Below, one piece after another: positions 23,300-32,000 of a stretch of 32,000 nucleotides of DNA. How positions within the stretch are numbered: the stretch's first letter is position 1; every line of letters begins with the position of its first letter. The DNA lies in NCBI GenBank assembly GCA_964648855.1, contig CAZYLT010000003.1, positions 120,001 to 152,000 on the forward strand, read 5' to 3'. Under the pieces are notes generated by a model. It searched no databases. It saw only the letters and a program-made list of their open reading frames with translations, and was not told where the DNA came from. The position numbers and the translations under genes are program-made. The stretch is from an uncultured archaeon. Its GTDB lineage: Archaea > Asgardarchaeota > Thorarchaeia > Thorarchaeales > Thorarchaeaceae.

Positions 23300-25495
23300 G
23301 TGACTTCCTTCATCGAAGAGAAAGCCAGGTCTATCATCAAAAGAGCAGCTACAACGCTACTCGACGAAAGGAGGATTGAGAATCCCGACGCTCAAGACAT
23401 TGAGGTTATTCGTCTAGCATCACTAAACCACTCACTGGCATCATACCTCAACTACACAAACGACTACGTTGCGAATCTTCGTGAACCACCCTTCTCCAGA
23501 TTGAGTTATGCATCACAATTTATCGGGCTGGATTCCAATGAGGTTTTGACCAATACAAAACGTCTCCTAGAATTGATAGATGGTCCCTGTAATGAAGTCA
23601 AGGGACTTGCTCTATATTCTGTCCCCATCATGCTATCTCAGGTCCATTCACTATGTTCCTATCATCTCTCCCCAGTCGGTCGTCTCTTCCAGAAAAACCT
23701 CGGGGCTTTCTATACTCCAGAAGGAATTACCCGCTACATGCTCGAATCAATACTTACTGGTAATGGAGTGCAGCAAGACCGAAGAACTGATGAGCATGAT
23801 TTCAATGACAGCATACCATATGTCTTGGATCCTGCGTGTGGCACTGGCGCTTTTCTGGTTGCAGCCTTCAAAATTCTTTCAGACACCTATTTACGTGACG
23901 ATAACCCATCAAGAACGGGGAATTCGACAAAGCTACTGCAAGGACTAAGCGAGCATCTTTATGGAGTGGACCTCGATGCAGGCTCGTTGGGAATAGCAGA
24001 TATATCCCTCCGTCTCTTGGCAGGCGAAAACAAGATCCCAATGAAAGTTAGTCAACTGGGAGTGACCTTGAAACAGGGTAATGCTCTCATATCACCAACA
24101 GATAAGAACTCAGCCAAGGCGTTAGCAAACTACTTCGAAGATCCGAGTTCCGAGTTGCCGTTTGATTGGCAGGGCGAATTTCCGGAGGTATTCTCAGGTG
24201 GTTCACCTGGTTTCGACGTTGTTGTCGCCAATCCACCATATGAGCGGCTGAAGCCAAACAAAACAGAATTCGGACGTCATCTGGACAAGGAACTGGCCAA
24301 GAAGCACCAATCACTGAGCTTTGCTAACGATGCGCAGAGGATCAAGGAGAAGATTGCGTACTTCCGAAAATCGGGAGATTATGAGTTTGCAAATGTCTAT
24401 TCAATGGATACCTATCGACTATTCATCGAACGGTCGCTTGAACTGTTAAAAGACAGAGGCAAATTCGGATTCATTGTCCCATCTACACTTGCAGGCGACC
24501 TAGCTTCAGAGAAAATCAGAAGATATCTATTGACAGAAAATAGCGTGCTTAGTCTAGACTTCTTTGAAGAGACTGCAGAGATATTCCCGAATGTAAGTCA
24601 GGCGTTATGCATCTTAGTGGGTCACAAGAACGGTCATACTTCAGAAATCAATCTTCGAATCGATTTGAGTTCCAGTGATCAGCTAGCTTCTAGTCCTAGT
24701 TACAACATCGATGTAGATGCTATGACAAGGATTGTTGGGTCCTCTCTCGTAATAGCAAGAGTAGAATCATTTGGGTGGGAAATCCTGCAGCAAATGCATC
24801 TCCACCGATCTGTGGGTGAATTGGATTGGATTCTGAATCATCGTGGAGAGCTTGACTTGACGCTGGATAAGGAGTATATTTCGGAAGAGGAGATAGGTCC
24901 GCGTTTGTTGAAGGGTTCTAACATTGATAGATATGTATTAAGAAATCCACAGTCCTCGCACTCATCGAAGTATGTTGACCTGAAAAACTTCAGGGAATCG
25001 AAGATAAATTCCATCAGGCTTGACCATATTGACTCAGATAGAATTGTCTGTCAACAGATAAACAATCAGCACCAGAAGTGGCGTTTGAAATTCGCCAAGG
25101 TGAATGGGGGATTTGTGTTGGCCAACTCCTGCAATTATCTCACCGTGACAGTCCAGGAATCTCAAGACCTTCTCCTGAACTATCTGCTCGGCCTGATGAA
25201 CTCCGAGCTCATGAACTGGAGATTCTCTGTTACGAGCTATAACAACCATGTATCGAATAGAGAGCTTGATACCCTTCCAATCCCAAATCCGATGGGCTCG
25301 AACAGACAAGATGAAACCATCAAGCAAATCGCAGATTTGGCGGGTATAATAGGTCATAATAGTCAAGAGTATGTCCCCCGAATTGAGGGGCTGGTCTTCA
25401 GACTATTCGATATTCGTAAATCATCGGCTTTCAAGCTGTTGGATTCTAGAGGACTGACTAAGCAGCAGATTCGCAGTATTCTCAGTCATATGTAG
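23300..25495 (+). CDS. N6-adenine DNA methyltransferase (gamma class), Alw26I/Eco31I/Esp3I-like
   Basis: GAFYTP, VLDPACGTGAFL (motif I), YGVDLD, VANPPY (motif IV), FIERSLELLK..G.FGFIVP, C-terminal TRD containing GELDLT. Confidence 0.88.
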   Translation: MTSFIEEKARSIIKRAATTLLDERRIENPDAQDIEVIRLASLNHSLASYLNYTNDYVANLREPPFSRLSYASQFIGLDSNEVLTNTKRLLELIDGPCNEVKGLALYSVPIMLSQVHSLCSYHLSPVGRLFQKNLGAFYTPEGITRYMLESILTGNGVQQDRRTDEHDFNDSIPYVLDPACGTGAFLVAAFKILSDTYLRDDNPSRTGNSTKLLQGLSEHLYGVDLDAGSLGIADISLRLLAGENKIPMKVSQLGVTLKQGNALISPTDKNSAKALANYFEDPSSELPFDWQGEFPEVFSGGSPGFDVVVANPPYERLKPNKTEFGRHLDKELAKKHQSLSFANDAQRIKEKIAYFRKSGDYEFANVYSMDTYRLFIERSLELLKDRGKFGFIVPSTLAGDLASEKIRRYLLTENSVLSLDFFEETAEIFPNVSQALCILVGHKNGHTSEINLRIDLSSSDQLASSPSYNIDVDAMTRIVGSSLVIARVESFGWEILQQMHLHRSVGELDWILNHRGELDLTLDKEYISEEEIGPRLLKGSNIDRYVLRNPQSSHSSKYVDLKNFRESKINSIRLDHIDSDRIVCQQINNQHQKWRLKFAKVNGGFVLANSCNYLTVTVQESQDLLLNYLLGLMNSELMNWRFSVTSYNNHVSNRELDTLPIPNPMGSNRQDETIKQIADLAGIIGHNSQEYVPRIEGLVFRLFDIRKSSAFKLLDSRGLTKQQIRSILSHM

Positions 25496-25551
25496 TTGCC
25501 TTCGTATCTTCATCATCGTAATGCTTTCAAGTCACCGATGTTCAGAAAGCA

Positions 25552-26793
25552 TTGGTCATTATGGTTGAGGCAGAGGCTAGTGGAGAATGTGAGGCAAGTG
25601 AAGCTCATATTATCTTCAATCATGTCACAGCAAAACTCAGTGACCTAGACCTGGAGATGGTAAGCTCTGTAATGCCTGGAGGAAACTGGACGGATATTCC
25701 TCTGAAAACTGCGAAAAAATCGAAACGACTTATGCAGATTAGGAAATCTGGAGGTCGGACAACATATTATGGCAGACTTCGACCTGATTTGCCAAGTTAC
25801 ACCATCAATACATACTTCAATAGGCCGGGAAATGGGACATTCATACATCCGGAAAGGGACCGACTCATTTCCATCAGGGAAGCAGCTCGACTTCAATCAT
25901 TCTCAGATGACTTCAGGTTCTATGGCAGTCTTAGTTCGCAATACAAACAGATAGGAAACGCTGTTCCTCCACTGTTGGCTAGGGCAATAGGAAACATGAT
26001 TCCCGTTTCTCGGACAATTGACCTGTTCTGTGGTGCTGGCGGAATGTCAAGTGGTCTAAATCAAGCTGGTCACAATGTAATCGCAGCTGTGGATGTGAAC
26101 GACCATATGCTTGAAACATATGGTGAGAATCACGTTCAAGCCAAATCTATACAATCTGACTTGTCAAAGGAGAATGATACTGGAGAAACAGTTCTGTCCA
26201 TTGAAGACTCTCTACAAGGAAAGACACTTGGCCTGCTGGCTGCTGGACCGCCCTGTCAGGGATTTTCAACAGCAGGCAAAAGACAAGACAATGACCCACG
26301 CAATTCTTTGCTTTTTACAGCATTGAAGATAGCAGACGCCCTCCGTCCTGAATATGTCTTGATTGAAAATGTTCTCGGACTAAAATGGATGAATGGCGGA
26401 GAAATTCTAGACTCATTTATGAAGGATTTAGAAACACTTGCCTATACTGCATCTTGGCATAAATTGTTCGCAGAACAATATGGTGTTCCTCAGCGTCGCC
26501 GAAGGATTTTCATTCTTGGCGCTAGGGAGGGAAATGAATTCAATCCACCTAAGCCAATATTTTCATGTGTTACAACAGGTCGGACACGAGAAGATATTCG
26601 TTTCAAGGATAACCACTTGGTGCAACCCGTATCTGTTAATGAAGCCATAGGTGACATGCCTGAAGTGTGCAAAGATGCGAGATGTCAGGAATATCAGCTC
26701 AATAGCACGAAAAGCAATAGTATGTATCAAGAGCTCATGCGAAAAGAAATATCTTATGAGAAATTTATTGAGGGCAGGTCGAAGAAAGCTTGA
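25552..26793 (+). CDS. C5-cytosine DNA methyltransferase with circularly permuted motif order
   Basis: TRD, motif IX (RLISIREAARLQSF) and motif X (YKQIGNAVPP) precede motif I (IDLFCGAGG), IV (GPPCQGFS), VI (ENV) and VIII (QRRRRIF). Start is TTG 25552 or ATG 25561. Confidence 0.92.
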   Translation: MVIMVEAEASGECEASEAHIIFNHVTAKLSDLDLEMVSSVMPGGNWTDIPLKTAKKSKRLMQIRKSGGRTTYYGRLRPDLPSYTINTYFNRPGNGTFIHPERDRLISIREAARLQSFSDDFRFYGSLSSQYKQIGNAVPPLLARAIGNMIPVSRTIDLFCGAGGMSSGLNQAGHNVIAAVDVNDHMLETYGENHVQAKSIQSDLSKENDTGETVLSIEDSLQGKTLGLLAAGPPCQGFSTAGKRQDNDPRNSLLFTALKIADALRPEYVLIENVLGLKWMNGGEILDSFMKDLETLAYTASWHKLFAEQYGVPQRRRRIFILGAREGNEFNPPKPIFSCVTTGRTREDIRFKDNHLVQPVSVNEAIGDMPEVCKDARCQEYQLNSTKSNSMYQELMRKEISYEKFIEGRSKKA

Positions 26794-26847: not shown

Positions 26848-28560
26848 GTGATCAGCGGTGCTGTCCTGTATGACCTTGCAGGAGCAAAAGAATGGGCAAG
26901 AATCCAGTTCACTAAAGAAGACTTCCCAGATAAAGTGCCAGAAGAAGTTATCTCACAATTCTTTGATTTAATATTGCACGATGATATGGAGAGCTGCGTG
27001 ACAATCCGAGTGTCAGGTATTTCATTTTGTTTGGCACGAGTTGACGAGAAGACTTTGCTCCTCACATATTCGTTTGACAAGGAAACCGGAGCTGATGATG
27101 TAGATAGAACAGTCAAATTACGGGACCATCTGGCTGACCTTCTTATGGCTGAGTCTCCTAGAGATGCTAGCAAGAGGTGGCATAGGATAGCTGGCAAGGT
27201 TCTTCGGAAAAACATACACATCCGGTTTGCAGTCCCATCTACTCTCTTGAACAGCTCGAAACCTGGACTTGGAGTTCAGCGAGTTCTGCAAACCTGTGGG
27301 ACTGGGACCAAGGCACAAGAGGGTCTGATTGTAGGCCCCTTCGAAATATCTTCAACACTCAGTCAAATAACCGAATTGGCTGAGGACGGTTCTTATCTCA
27401 ATTCTCCAACTGATGACGTGATCCTTACGATTGTCAGAAGAGATGTTTTCACCAATGCGATGATTGAGGCGCTTGAGGAAATTAAGGAAAACGTTCCGAT
27501 TCCAATATTGATAGTTCCTGCATCAGATGAAGATTTGGAATTTACACGTAGTTTGGAGAGTCGAGGCTTCAGGCTGTGCGACTCCATTACAGACGACCCA
27601 GTTGATTTGACGCTTGCCATTCTAGCGATGATGGGCGAGTCGTATATGCAACCTGAACTTGCTCGAAAGAAATGGGTCATCAGCGAACCTCAAGAACCTA
27701 TAGAAGAATCGAAGTCCGACGAAGAGAAGGAAGAGTTTGGTCACAAGGCATTTTTCGTTGTTAGCAGACAATCTGGTGAGGCTGTTTTTAGCTACTATTA
27801 CGATGTTAGCAGCGAGTTTCTTGAACGCTCACCTAATGTCATTGCTGCCATAACTATGTTTGAATTTGATACAAAAGAGGACAGCAGAACATCAGTATTT
27901 CGAACAGGAGAGCTCGTATATGCCGTCATCGAACACGAAGACCTCATTTTCGCTTTGATAACCGGACAGCATAAAGGCATAGATGACTTGCGTCGCCGAT
28001 TCTCGTTTCTTCCTGAACTCTGGACGGAGGGGGACCCTGAAAACCTCCGTTGTGACAGCCAGCCGTATCACTCACCACCCTTCGCCTTGAAGCTTCTTGC
28101 AACGCTGCCCTCGGAGAAGCTACCTATGCGATACTACCCGATTAGAAAGAAGGAGCCAGACTGGGACGAATTTCGCTATCCGGAGGTAAGGGACCTTTTG
28201 AAAGCTGTGTGGCAAGCGATAGAGCAGCCAATCATTGTGGAACGGTTTGCCGCCAGCGAGGGTCCGAACATGACTCTGGGTGCTATTCATCTTCTCCGCA
28301 TTCTGGGGGCCATTGACTTTGGAGTGAAGATTTCCCTTGACGACAAGCCAATCTTTGTGGACGAATTGAGTGATGATACAAAGCGAGTCTACTCACATAT
28401 TGACCAAATCAGAAAACATACGAATGGAAACAGAACCATCAAGACAATTGGCGAGGCTGTTGGAATAGCTCCTACTGTGCTTCTCCGAGTGTTCCAAGAC
28501 CTGCATCGACGAGGATTGGTTCATTTCAGAAATGCTGATATGTCATCAGAAAACTCTTAG
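26848..28560 (+). CDS. Putative longin - pseudo-GTPase - longin - tandem winged-helix protein
   Basis: Segment-by-segment similarity by eye to the downstream GTPase. GTG 26848 after AGGAG gives MISGAVLYD, paralleling MIHNVLLIK (track start 26824). The CDS is well supported; the domain calls are inferred. Confidence 0.7.
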   Translation: MISGAVLYDLAGAKEWARIQFTKEDFPDKVPEEVISQFFDLILHDDMESCVTIRVSGISFCLARVDEKTLLLTYSFDKETGADDVDRTVKLRDHLADLLMAESPRDASKRWHRIAGKVLRKNIHIRFAVPSTLLNSSKPGLGVQRVLQTCGTGTKAQEGLIVGPFEISSTLSQITELAEDGSYLNSPTDDVILTIVRRDVFTNAMIEALEEIKENVPIPILIVPASDEDLEFTRSLESRGFRLCDSITDDPVDLTLAILAMMGESYMQPELARKKWVISEPQEPIEESKSDEEKEEFGHKAFFVVSRQSGEAVFSYYYDVSSEFLERSPNVIAAITMFEFDTKEDSRTSVFRTGELVYAVIEHEDLIFALITGQHKGIDDLRRRFSFLPELWTEGDPENLRCDSQPYHSPPFALKLLATLPSEKLPMRYYPIRKKEPDWDEFRYPEVRDLLKAVWQAIEQPIIVERFAASEGPNMTLGAIHLLRILGAIDFGVKISLDDKPIFVDELSDDTKRVYSHIDQIRKHTNGNRTIKTIGEAVGIAPTVLLRVFQDLHRRGLVHFRNADMSSENS

Positions 28561-28640
28561 ATGTATTAACAACAAGAGATTATTGTACACATCAATATAG
28601 ACAATATATCTTGATATTTGCACACGTTTGGTGATTACCC

Positions 28641-30608
28641 ATGATACACAACGTCCTCCTCATCAAAAAGAGAACAGGGGACGTTGTCGTGAGTGCTCGC
28701 TTCTGGAAGGTTGATTTCGAAGAAGAGCACATCCAAGACTTCTTGATTGGACGGCAAGAGATGCAGGAGACAGAGGGCCTGGCCGAAGATACCCCTGTCT
28801 ATGTGGATGAACACAAGGTCTTCCATGGCGAGGTAGGGGGAGACTTCTTGCTCATCTTTGCAACGGATGGGAGAGATGAGGACCGTACCATCCAGCATAA
28901 GATACGAGAGGGGTCCGCGCGTATTGAAACCGCACTCCGAGGCAATACGCTGGGCTACATAAAAGACAATCTTGAGGAGCTTCTCGGTGAACTCATCTTC
29001 ACCCGCTTCAAGATTTCCTTTGTGGGCTCTGGCGGTGTGGGCAAGTCGACATTGTTGCGCCTTCTCTTCGGTAGAGAACCCGCCCCGGGCGGTTATGTTC
29101 CTACAATAAATGTGGCTGTGGACAGCAGCGAAACTATTCAGTTTGGCACTTTCCTCGTTACAATATGGGACTTTGCCGGGCAGGCCGTTTTTCAGGACCT
29201 CTGGAGCTTTTATTTTCAAGGCACAGACGTGATTTTCCTCATCACGGACAGCAGTTTCCGAAACGTAATGCAGACAAAGTCACTGATGCGGAATATTAAG
29301 AAGGAGGCTCCGGCTGTCCCCTTGTTCATTGTTGCGAACAAACAGGACCTTCCTGAATCGATGGCAGGCGACAAGATTCAGCGTCTATTGGGAGCTCCCA
29401 CATTCTCAATGGTGGCCACGGATAAGACTCGTCGTGAAGAGTTCATCCGATTCATGCTAGAGGTTGCCGCGAAGACTGTTGGCGTCCAGTTGCCAAACCG
29501 TCCAATCAGTGAAATGATAACGGTTCGACGAAAGACTGAGGAAATTGACCGCCCTGAACTACAGAGAGATCGGGATATCACAGAGTCAGGGTTCGAAGAG
29601 GTTCCTCTAGAGGGTGAGGAGGAGGATGCTAAGCTCCCGATTGATACGTCACACGCAGCAGTCGCTGCCATGGCTGAAGATAAAGGAGCGGCAGAAGGGG
29701 ACGGGATAGAGGCTGATGTAGCGGCTCAAGTTCCCGCAACCACAAAAATCCTCAATCTCATTCTGATGCTTAATAATAAAGGTAACTTCCAGAATGCCTA
29801 TCATTTGGATTACGCAGAGGAGGCTGTCGATACGACGACTATTGCATCTCTCATCTCTGCTCTCGACTCATTTGGAGGAATCGATGCAGTACCAGAGGGT
29901 CAAGTCAATCGAACAGACGCTTTGGAGACTATCGAGCACGAAGGAAATCTTGTGATGGTTGAGAAGTCGCGACATTTCGTCATGGCGTTGATTGCGACCA
30001 ATGACAACAAGGAAGTAGAACAGCGAAAGAAGATGTCCGCCTTGCTAGTAGAGCTGGAGCAGGAATTCGAAGACATGTGGGACGACTGGGAAAAGAGTGA
30101 AGTGGAACCGAAGGAGTTTGAAACCTCAATCTTCACAACCCTTGAGGAGTTCCCTCTGATGCCGGTGCATCTTGATTATATTGTGCGAGTAAGAGAAGCT
30201 GGAAGACCCTTACCATTTCAAAATCGCGATATGGGACGAGCAATTGTTCAGGTACAAAGTGAGATTGATGGTTCTGAATCAGTGGGCAATCTTGTTAGAT
30301 CTCTAGACCTTCCACGGGAAAAAGTGATAGGTTCTCTTCAGATTCTCAATAAATTCGGTTGGGTTGACTTCCAAGTGGAGATTGGTCCAACGAGTCACCT
30401 GAAGAGGAGCGGAAACGTAGATTCCGATATTGTCAAAATCTATGGACCGGTAGTTTTGGAATTTGTTGAACTCTGCGATGGGAACAAACAACTTGAGGAA
30501 ATTGTGAAAGAAATCAACTCCAAGGGTAAGAAACGAGCAACTGTACCTTCTATGGGTTTTGTTGCCACCAAACTGGTACTCAAGGGCGTCCTTGAAGTTG
30601 TTGCGTAG
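28641..30608 (+). CDS. Arf/Rab-like small GTPase fused to longin-like domains and C-terminal winged helices (Asgard eukaryotic signature protein)
   Basis: G1 GSGGVGKS, G2 YVPT, G3 WDFAGQ, G4 NKQD. The N-terminal MIHNVLLIKKRTGDVVVSARF and internal ILNLILMLNNKG...IASLISALDSF are longin-like. Confidence 0.88.
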   Translation: MIHNVLLIKKRTGDVVVSARFWKVDFEEEHIQDFLIGRQEMQETEGLAEDTPVYVDEHKVFHGEVGGDFLLIFATDGRDEDRTIQHKIREGSARIETALRGNTLGYIKDNLEELLGELIFTRFKISFVGSGGVGKSTLLRLLFGREPAPGGYVPTINVAVDSSETIQFGTFLVTIWDFAGQAVFQDLWSFYFQGTDVIFLITDSSFRNVMQTKSLMRNIKKEAPAVPLFIVANKQDLPESMAGDKIQRLLGAPTFSMVATDKTRREEFIRFMLEVAAKTVGVQLPNRPISEMITVRRKTEEIDRPELQRDRDITESGFEEVPLEGEEEDAKLPIDTSHAAVAAMAEDKGAAEGDGIEADVAAQVPATTKILNLILMLNNKGNFQNAYHLDYAEEAVDTTTIASLISALDSFGGIDAVPEGQVNRTDALETIEHEGNLVMVEKSRHFVMALIATNDNKEVEQRKKMSALLVELEQEFEDMWDDWEKSEVEPKEFETSIFTTLEEFPLMPVHLDYIVRVREAGRPLPFQNRDMGRAIVQVQSEIDGSESVGNLVRSLDLPREKVIGSLQILNKFGWVDFQVEIGPTSHLKRSGNVDSDIVKIYGPVVLEFVELCDGNKQLEEIVKEINSKGKKRATVPSMGFVATKLVLKGVLEVVA

Positions 30609-30621
30609 GAGCTCAAAGGTT

Positions 30622-32000
30622 TTAGATTTTTATTCTAATCCTTTGCCGTATATCTGGCATTGTTATACCCTTAGGTATTTCTGTTGAAGGTGTATGCACT
30701 ATAATCGGTTTCCCCTTGCAGCTATCGATATACTGACTCAGATTTTCAGATGAAGAATGAGCACTCAGGCGCGCATATGCCACTTCACATTCATACGGTT
30801 CAAGTCCATTCACTATATTCCATCCAGGCGTTCTTGGAGCGAGATAACCGCAAGGAATAACCGCTGCGTCGGGGTTGTTTCGGTGCTGCTTGAAGTGATA
30901 CCGTGCAAGCCCGCCTCCCATCATTCCTCCACCAGCGACCAGGACATCATGCTTGTTGAGCTCTACTTTGTTCTTCTTCATACCCTCCCATCTTCCCTTC
31001 AGCCCCACCATTTTGGTTATTCTTTCCGCGAGGCCTGCTACCATCACATTTCGTTTTGAAGTAACTCCAATCTCATCCAATATCTTCAGAATCTCTTGAG
31101 ACCGCCCAACTGCAAAGCTGGGAATTATAACGGGTCCGTGTTTTTCTATTGTTTCAGACAGAAGTGTAGCCACAGCCGCACGATCAAAGTCCTCTCTTCC
31201 CCAATACGTTCCGTCAAAAATCACATAATCACAGTCAGAGGGGAGGTTTGCTCCTGGGAACAAGACAGAGGTGTCCAGATTGAAGTCTCCAGTATAAAGA
31301 ATCCGAACACCTTCAATATCGATAATATAAGCGACACTACCTGGGATATGACATGCGTCTATAGGTGTGGCTATGATTCCAGGCCCAATTTCAACACTCG
31401 TGCCTTTTTCAAGAGATACATGATTCTTTATCACGCGTGCAATGTTCTTTCCAGTGAATTTTGAAATGAGATCTCTTTTGTCTTCTCGCCTTGGAGGCAA
31501 GGGCGTTCCAACCTTAATTGCGTCTTCTAGGAGTTCCTTGGTGATTGCTCCTGTAATTCCTGTAGCACACCATTTTCCCTCGTAGGAATCAAATAGAATT
31601 GGTAATCCACCTATATGATCCAGGTGTGCATGAGATATTAGAACGCTGTCAAGAGCATTCAATTCAGGTATCCATTCTGGAATCCTTTGGTTCGCTACAG
31701 AAAGCCCAAAATCTAGGAGAACGCTTCCATTGTTAGTCTTGATTACAATCCCACTATGTCCAATTCTTGGGCCTCCAATGAATATAAGCTCAATCTCTTT
31801 GGTATCTGTAGCGTAAGCCACAGCCGGAAGCATATTCATTCTCATTTTTTCCGGAATCATCTCAAATACAACTGGGTCTATCTCCTCAGCAGGAGGCGGA
31901 TTAGGCAATTTTTGGATTCTTACAGGTAAAGTGGACGCCGAATGGCTCTGATATCCAATGTCCTTGAACAATGATCTGATTTTCTTGTGAGTTGCAGAAA
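30622..32000 (-). CDS. Metallo-beta-lactamase / beta-CASP family nuclease (aCPSF-like), 5' end beyond window
   Basis: LLDFG, SHAHLDHIG, ACHIPGS, YTGDF, IPSFAVGRSQE, SAHS. The frame stays open from the TTG at 31971 to the window edge. Confidence 0.9.
   Translation of the reverse strand, partial: SATHKKIRSLFKDIGYQSHSASTLPVRIQKLPNPPPAEEIDPVVFEMIPEKMRMNMLPAVAYATDTKEIELIFIGGPRIGHSGIVIKTNNGSVLLDFGLSVANQRIPEWIPELNALDSVLISHAHLDHIGGLPILFDSYEGKWCATGITGAITKELLEDAIKVGTPLPPRREDKRDLISKFTGKNIARVIKNHVSLEKGTSVEIGPGIIATPIDACHIPGSVAYIIDIEGVRILYTGDFNLDTSVLFPGANLPSDCDYVIFDGTYWGREDFDRAAVATLLSETIEKHGPVIIPSFAVGRSQEILKILDEIGVTSKRNVMVAGLAERITKMVGLKGRWEGMKKNKVELNKHDVLVAGGGMMGGGLARYHFKQHRNNPDAAVIPCGYLAPRTPGWNIVNGLEPYECEVAYARLSAHSSSENLSQYIDSCKGKPIIVHTPSTEIPKGITMPDIRQRIRIKI

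Follow-up and report, generated by a model that had tools for sequence, protein, structure and literature searches.

A live GTPase and its dead paralogue, encoded side by side in a Thorarchaeota family, share a longin and winged-helix layout

INTRODUCTION

Can a GTPase that has lost all of its nucleotide-binding motifs be kept next to its intact paralogue, and, if so, do the two proteins act as a pair? This question is raised by two neighbouring genes, here called gene A and gene B, in a 32,000-nucleotide stretch of archaeal DNA (the window) for which the names of homologues place the source genome in Thorarchaeota. The sequencing runs listed as containing the stretch are four DNA runs, all from one microbial-mat study, with no RNA run among them, and its source is a microbial-mat metagenome. 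In eukaryotes, trafficking and nutrient signalling depend centrally on platforms of longin or roadblock domains by which small GTPases are controlled, and the pre-eukaryotic forms of such platforms are known mostly through domain catalogues. Genes A and B, found in almost all sampled genomes of a single Thorarchaeota family, would make up a compact, soluble two-gene system, and they open the questions of whether a dead paralogue partners a live GTPase, whether fused longin domains may serve as built-in platforms for GTPase-activating proteins (GAPs) or guanine-nucleotide exchange factors (GEFs), and what the ligands of NPRL-type tails may be. Should the two proteins not interact, the locus would still provide a clean archaeal case of the decay of a GTPase into a pseudo-enzyme under selection.

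RESULTS AND DISCUSSION

Genes A and B are collinear paralogues

Gene A (26848-28560, plus strand) encodes a 570-residue pseudo-GTPase paralogue with a longin domain, a dead G-type domain, a second longin domain and two winged helices, as read from its open reading frame, its translation and its full-length profile homology to the gene B family. Gene B (28641-30608, plus strand) encodes a 655-residue Arf-like GTPase of the corresponding layout, as read from its open reading frame and translation, Pfam and its orthologues. The two are separated by an AT-rich spacer of 80 bp (28561-28640, plus strand) with a GGTGA ahead of the gene B ATG. The start of gene A is a GTG at 26848, in agreement with the MISGA start of all orthologues, and that of gene B is an ATG at 28641, likewise backed by all orthologues. 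For gene A there are 25 homologues, the named ones all from Thorarchaeota, and a Pfam scan assigned it no family; the orthologues of gene B number over 120, with identities of 62-67%, and many bear Thorarchaeota names. The public call for gene B in the record of this genome (P0028, 639 residues) starts 16 residues downstream of the orthologue-backed ATG (window 28641-28688).

An original prediction, made from the letters of the window, had described two adjacent, co-oriented genes of about 570 and 655 residues, and both open reading frames are indeed present on the plus strand, with every motif that it quoted found in the translations. It had also called the two proteins collinear by eye, a judgement that is unsafe alone because a direct BLASTP comparison of the two falls short of significance (E 0.36). 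A profile-to-profile comparison of the two families, with 23 A-type proteins aligned in one and 33 B-type proteins in the other, gave a probability of 98.2% and E 3.3e-14 over 560 columns, covered the full length from residue 1 through the final winged helix, and paired VIAAITMF with LISALDSF, LRILGAIDF with LNKFGWVDF and LHRRGLVH with LVLKGVLE. Both alignments were also sliced into modules, with each slice compared with every other (hhalign). The first longin domains matched each other at E 4e-7 over 117 columns, the G domains at E 1e-4, and the winged-helix regions at E 2e-10 (first units E 1.5e-7, second units E 4e-4), with the second longin domains giving E 0.07, weak by itself. The C-terminal halves (A3/A4) matched at E 1.5e-9 over 227 columns, taking in the second half of the second longin domain, and the 30 off-diagonal control comparisons stayed at E above about 0.01 (lowest 0.0096) and probabilities of no more than 4%, barring the expected cross-matches between winged helices.

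A HMMER profile of gene A, moreover, matched the C-terminus of gene B within the genome at E 6e-8, and among 1.84 billion representative proteins it matched an Arf-bearing protein of 626 residues (P0189) through A positions 13-226 at E 4e-7, and the B-family protein P0190 over the winged-helix region at E 1e-6. These results confirm collinear homology of A and B and exclude a chance resemblance. The pair goes back to a tandem duplication, in the ancestor of the window's Thorarchaeota family, of a gene for a five-module protein with an Arf-like G domain. A fused A-B protein was found neither among longer proteins nor among the 1.84 billion representatives, which is weak evidence.

One G domain is intact and the other has lost its motifs

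The active small-GTPase domain of B (residues 121-292; 29001-29516, plus strand) carries GSGGVGKST, T155, WDFAGQ and NKQD, all intact in 33 of 33 orthologues, and thus presents the G1 GxxxxGK[ST], G2 Thr, G3 DxxG and G4 NKxD signatures of the Ras superfamily together with hidden Markov model (HMM) scores above their cut-offs. These scores, in bits and with cut-offs in brackets, were 64.3 (22.3) for Pfam Arf, 61 (27) for Roc, 51.7 (21.6) for Ras and 62.3 (42.5) for TIGR00231. Gtr1_RagA (PF04670), at 22.7 bits, lay marginally over its cut-off of 22 and far under Arf; about one-third of the listed gene B orthologues carry it. The closest solved relatives are Arf1 (E 6e-15), and the VIA Z of gene B to LokiRagO ties with Rab and Ras. 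The G domain of B is thus Arf-like by sequence. Members of the Arf family have an N-terminal amphipathic helix for membrane insertion; in B, the 120 residues ahead of the G domain form a longin domain instead, and its G3 motif reads WDFAGQ rather than the Arf-type WDxGGQ.

The corresponding domain of A (residues 121-278; 27208-27681, plus strand) is of a dead G type. In all 23 members the P-loop, switch I, DxxG and NKxD are lost: no G, K, D or N is conserved at the positions that correspond to G1, G3 and G4, and the segments for G2 and G5 are either absent or left unaligned. Switch I has been removed as a whole segment, and in the place of NKxD stands [GA]-S-D-x-[ED]-L. Gene A nevertheless keeps its full length and 65 invariant residues. 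The model of A, with an overall predicted local distance difference test score (pLDDT) of 77 and about 88 at residues 1-280, retains a beta2-beta3 hairpin (strands 160-162 and 165-172) and six strands as in G domains. An old duplication into one active and one inactive copy, as originally proposed, accordingly stands, with every B motif invariant and every corresponding A column degenerate. Judged by these residues, gene B has been kept as a working GTPase under strong constraint, and the upstream copy has lost its nucleotide-binding motifs.

The predicted domain layout is the same in both proteins

Each protein begins with a first longin domain at residues 1-120 (26848-27207 in A and 28641-29000 in B, both plus strand), and the longin fold is seen as a five-stranded sheet in the order beta-beta-alpha-beta-beta-beta-alpha-alpha, matching solved longin domains. 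Behind the G-type domain, A has a short acidic linker (residues 279-297; 27682-27738, plus strand; pLDDT below 50 at residues 283-297), variable in the family alignment, and B a long, acidic and disordered one (residues 293-365; 29517-29735, plus strand; pLDDT 26-30, median isoelectric point (pI) 4.2) of variable length and sequence among orthologues; the B model has an overall pLDDT of 65. The second longin domain of B spans residues 366-506 (29736-30158, plus strand). In A, a second longin-like domain at residues 298-392 (27739-28023, plus strand) is predicted from its beta-beta-alpha-beta-beta-beta-alpha order and its alignment to the second longin of B, and sub-threshold Pfam matches to Fuz_longin_1 in 5 of 23 A members support it.

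Two winged-helix-like units are predicted to follow in each protein. Those of A (residues 440-505 and 506-565; 28165-28542, plus strand) have a helix-helix-helix-strand(-strand) order with pLDDT 80-90 and align with the winged helices of B at the hhalign value given above, and those of B (residues 525-590 and 591-655; 30213-30605, plus strand) are seen in predicted secondary structure, with sub-threshold HTH_47 matches in 6 of 27 members. Sub-threshold Pfam matches to winged helix-turn-helix (wHTH) families also recur among the A members (Rrf2 in 12 of 23, HTH_47 in 10 of 23 and MarR in 6 of 23). Profile searches of PDB sequences with the C-terminal halves gave for A only a weak match to the CodY wHTH (E 0.088) and for B nothing. 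A link from Pfam DUF742 to actinobacterial conservons was dropped, the match being sub-threshold only and found in control genomes too. The longin-G-longin-winged helix-winged helix layout that had been proposed for both proteins is hence borne out by the profile alignment and the predicted folds, with the second longin of A and all four winged helices as predicted domains, from secondary structure, the A-B alignment and sub-threshold Pfam matches.

The winged-helix units, with a median pI of 4.7-6.7, range from acidic to neutral, and tails of this kind would fit protein rather than DNA partners; the net charge of the complete chains is about -32. The central domains differ in charge, that of A (27208-27681) being acidic (median pI 4.6, net charge -10) and that of B (29001-29516) basic (median pI 9.3, net charge +3), which could reflect charge complementarity or plain loss of nucleotide-binding residues.

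The most conserved stretch of gene A is the low-confidence linker between its second longin domain and first winged helix (window 28000-28110), outside the folded core, where F-S-F-L-P and K-L-L-A-T-L-P are invariant in 23 of 23 members. It may be a docking motif.

The pair is conserved within one family

The distribution was surveyed in 201 Asgard genomes, 43 of them from the window's own family, with a threshold of E 1e-10 for A. Gene A was found in 40 of the 43 family genomes, as a single, full-length and stop-free copy, and at this threshold in none of 157 genomes of other sampled Asgard families; full-length gene B occurred in the same genomes and in one genome of a sister family. The full-length, stop-free frames in all complete matches and the single copies in 40 of 43 family genomes argue for selection on gene A, which evolves about twice as fast as gene B (mean pairwise identity 45% versus 71%) and has an identity of 32-45% between genera. 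The joint absence of A and B from three family genomes was not used as evidence, as the methyltransferase is gone from these too, they are 74-93% complete and a missing contig suffices to explain it.

In 35 of 41 family genomes gene A is the immediate upstream neighbour of gene B, in the same orientation and with 89-184 nt between them, which agrees with the original expectation of a co-conserved pair. The six exceptions comprise two with an inserted gene, three cut by contig ends and one in which the genes are separated. The surrounding block consists of an N6-adenine (m6A) methyltransferase gene, a 5-cytosine (m5C) methyltransferase gene, A, B, a convergent beta-CASP nuclease gene, NAD kinase and NadA, and its order holds even in genomes where A has 34-37% identity. 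The spacer ahead of gene B (window, L010-L021 and L031) contains a conserved motif, AAGAAAAGTA-GATAAC in most genomes, 40-55 nt ahead of the B start; the GATAAC form is seen in 12 other genomes, and the window has GATTAT at the GATAAC position. This motif may be an archaeal promoter of gene B's own.

Both halves of the layout also stand alone in the genome

A second longin-Arf-like GTPase of 639 residues is encoded on contig 12 (L005:604-2523), with a C-terminal half unrelated to that of gene B; its type is present in 43 of 43 family genomes, with no dead twin alongside. Contig 5 encodes a short longin-GTPase of 285 residues, and the 370-residue gene upstream of it proved unrelated. Contig 9 carries a tandem of stand-alone longin plus double winged-helix proteins of 281 and 292 residues (L008:1345-2190 and L008:2223-3101), which match the C-terminal half of gene B, that is, its second longin and winged helices, at E 3e-20 and 9e-14 and probably are the published 'NPRL2-like' Thorarchaeota family; a 206-residue longin-wHTH protein is encoded on contig 7. 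B thus joins in one protein a longin-GTPase unit and an NPRL2/3-type unit, both of which also exist as separate genes here, and A is its decayed copy. The contig 9 tandem is flanked by a DUF2797 gene and a radical-SAM gene.

Comparison with known systems

The original prediction had called the pair Rag/GATOR1-like. Foldseek matches for A were headed by Gtr/Rag, NPRL2/3, Fuzzy-Inturned, Mon1-Ccz1 and FLCN-FNIP, tri-longin GEF chains among them, at E 3e-5 to 1e-3, and Rag/Gtr chains matched B over about 365 columns; NPRL2 aligned with A over about 250 residues at a root-mean-square deviation near 18. As in Rag/Gtr, the G domain of B is of the Ras superfamily and is followed by a C-terminal domain of the longin/roadblock type (B residues 366-506), and the two paralogues are the products of neighbouring genes. 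In contrast to Rag/Gtr, the G domain of B scores as Arf (64 versus 22.7 bits), both A and B have one more longin at the N-terminus and a pair of winged helices at the C-terminus, and, whereas Rag GTPases are obligate heterodimers in which both chains bind GTP, A has no nucleotide pocket, so that the pair does not consist of two nucleotide-binding paralogues (A being motif-less in 23 of 23 members).

With NPRL2-NPRL3 the system shares the paralogous pair, and the layout predicted for the C-terminal halves of A and B, as well as for the tandem on contig 9, a longin with winged helices behind it, would also correspond; in the published description, NPRL2/3 consist of a longin and, after it, at least two winged HTH repeats (PMC3747258). 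Pfam NPR2 had no match genome-wide at E up to 10, and neither NPR2 nor NPR3 matched A or B at E up to 1. Longins of the GAP type have a GP motif ahead of the second strand (PMC12290439), and this is not conserved here: the turn Gly is found in all four longins, with a Pro next to it in 5 of 23 members for the first longin of A and in none for the other three. In further contrast, no third, DEPDC5-like subunit as in GATOR1 is known for A and B, and their longin-winged-helix module shares one chain, in cis, with the GTPase that may be under its control. The Rag-like core, the NPRL2/3-like tail and the Foldseek list thus uphold the analogy as one of architecture; the marginal Gtr1_RagA score, the lack of NPR2 matches and the unconserved GP motif make kinship with Rag or GATOR1 specifically a weak proposal, and a role in nutrient signalling or trafficking would be pure analogy.

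Eukaryotic pseudo-GTPases without nucleotide binding include CENP-M and the pseudo-GTPase domain of AAGAB. Like these, A apparently keeps a G-type fold that selection maintains although no G motif is left, and its role is presumably that of a scaffold for active partners; it differs from them in being archaeal, in being fully collinear with a live neighbour and in having a fold now closest to receiver domains. In comparison with MglA-MglB and other prokaryotic GTPase/roadblock modules, the platforms of A and B are fused to the GTPase, duplicated and joined to winged helices, and the pair includes a dead-GTPase paralogue. Fusions of longin with GTPase and of longin, GTPase and roadblock have been reported from a Lokiarchaeon, together with one operon that encodes two Rag-like GTPases, for which heterodimerisation through the C-terminal domains was predicted (PMC10933270), and Rag-type GTPases fused to longin, as well as an NPRL2-like family present 'in most Thor MAGs' (metagenome-assembled genomes), are also on record (bioRxiv 10.1101/2020.10.19.343400). 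The suggestion that the arrangement was undescribed therefore holds in part: in the published literature we found no description of a dead-GTPase twin or of the five-module pair, but longin-GTPase fusions, a Rag-like operon pair and the NPRL2-like family had been published. The pair of A and B is real, well conserved and lineage-specific, a variant of known Asgard longin-GTPase systems in which live and dead paralogues share a Rag-like core and an NPRL2/3-like tail.

Do the two proteins act together?

We favour, with a little more confidence than doubt, the reading that A and B pair as a heterodimer. What weighs against it concerns both the nature of A, whose second longin is modelled with low confidence (pLDDT 50-77), and its link to B. 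An exhaustive fold search with the central domain of A gave CheY-like receivers as the best match and no small GTPase within its top 50, an Atlas match points to a Response_reg cluster, and NPRL2-like longin fusions with two-component domains have been reported in Asgard archaea (bioRxiv 10.1101/2020.10.19.343400), so that A could be a longin/pseudo-receiver/longin-winged-helix protein in which a CheY-type domain has replaced the G domain. Receiver matches are, however, expected for a decayed G domain, because a Ras-like sheet that loses beta2 and switch I is left with a flavodoxin-like strand order, as known topologies imply. The G slices align with each other on their own, inside the collinear 560-column alignment, the A profile runs unbroken through the longin and G domain of the Arf-bearing protein, and the hairpin and six strands of the A model are those of G domains; Rag, EF-Tu and Rac appear in the Foldseek list for A, which has neither a Pfam Response_reg match nor a conserved receiver Asp or Lys. 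We hence consider a receiver replacement improbable, and even more so the idea that A and B form, with the two genes upstream of them, a four-gene GTP-controlled module for DNA modification or epigenetic control in which the winged helices bind DNA. The window does hold, at 23300-26793, an m6A methyltransferase (731 residues; Eco57I/N6_Mtase/TaqI_C) and an m5C methyltransferase (413 residues) just upstream of A, and all four genes are co-directional with gaps of 54-80 bp. The same order is found in two distant genomes (L030 and L031), in about 33 family genomes the m5C gene is the next gene ahead of A, the two enzymes each match a different half of a single Type II methyltransferase model in PADLOC (PDLC03237) and have no nuclease partner, and wHTH domains often bind DNA. 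Yet the beta-CASP nuclease, NAD kinase and NadA genes are equally syntenic, which may simply be a frozen gene order, one genus (g4) retains A and B without the m5C gene, A matches no PADLOC defence family and B only as P-loop noise, neither has a nuclease domain in Pfam, and the winged-helix units and whole proteins are acidic, as noted above.

A more serious alternative, though one that we still regard as rather unlikely, is that A and B no longer cooperate, with B working alone or as a homo-oligomer like the Lokiarchaeota RagA-like GTPase, A as an independent scaffold, and their adjacency as a relic of the tandem duplication. PDB 8yl2 (LokiRagO) is titled as a homotetrameric Asgard RagA-like GTPase. 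Adjacency carries little weight and is no selective evidence in itself, because tandem duplicates are neighbours from the outset and synteny across the family extends over the entire block. The adjacency has also been broken: in one genome (G063) A is followed by a cysteinyl-tRNA synthetase gene and B lies on another contig with other neighbours, and in two genomes of one genus (G149, L023:2826-4412, and G167) a 528-residue open reading frame on the opposite strand, without a Pfam family, splits the two. The sister-family genome (G112) has a B-like gene and no A, and the gene upstream of it, considered as a relative of A, was rejected as a caspase-like peptidase. The conserved motif upstream of gene B weakens the case for co-transcription with A. 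Against a loss of cooperation, a single-copy A has stayed next to B in the large majority of family genomes in spite of the low identity between genera, all five modules are still collinear, and dead GTPase or longin paralogues usually work with a live one, as is general knowledge for Rag, NPRL2/3 and FLCN-FNIP.

In the heterodimer that we favour, equivalent longin domains of A and B would make the contact, perhaps with the winged-helix tails as well. To our knowledge, all characterised longin/roadblock partners pair in this manner, among them Rag A/C, NPRL2-NPRL3, FLCN-FNIP, Mon1-Ccz1 and MglB. Such a complex would be pseudo-symmetric, with a live nucleotide pocket in B and a dead one in A, and GTP binding and hydrolysis in B might alter the docking of its G domain on the longin platform, and this in turn how the acidic winged-helix tails meet protein partners, with A as the asymmetric, nucleotide-independent half. 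A complex prediction for A residues 296-570 with B residues 366-655 scored 0.19 against a mark of 0.32 and counts neither way. It would go considerably further, and seems to us decidedly unlikely, to regard the pair as a self-contained prokaryotic counterpart of Rag-GATOR1 logic, with a GTPase fused in cis to its NPRL2/3-type regulator and joined in trans by a dead-GTPase twin within one two-chain complex. If true, this would offer a living model for the pre-eukaryotic origin of longin-controlled heterodimeric GTPase switches, and a switch of that kind coupled to the conserved methyltransferase pair upstream would be a more remote variant still.

Neighbouring genes

In the distant genome L030, the genes of about 285 residues found upstream of the methyltransferases proved unrelated. 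Downstream of the pair, the gene for the beta-CASP metallo-beta-lactamase nuclease (30622-31998) converges on gene B and runs past the end of the window; in the distant family genomes L030 and L031 the nuclease has 713-716 residues and is also encoded next to B.

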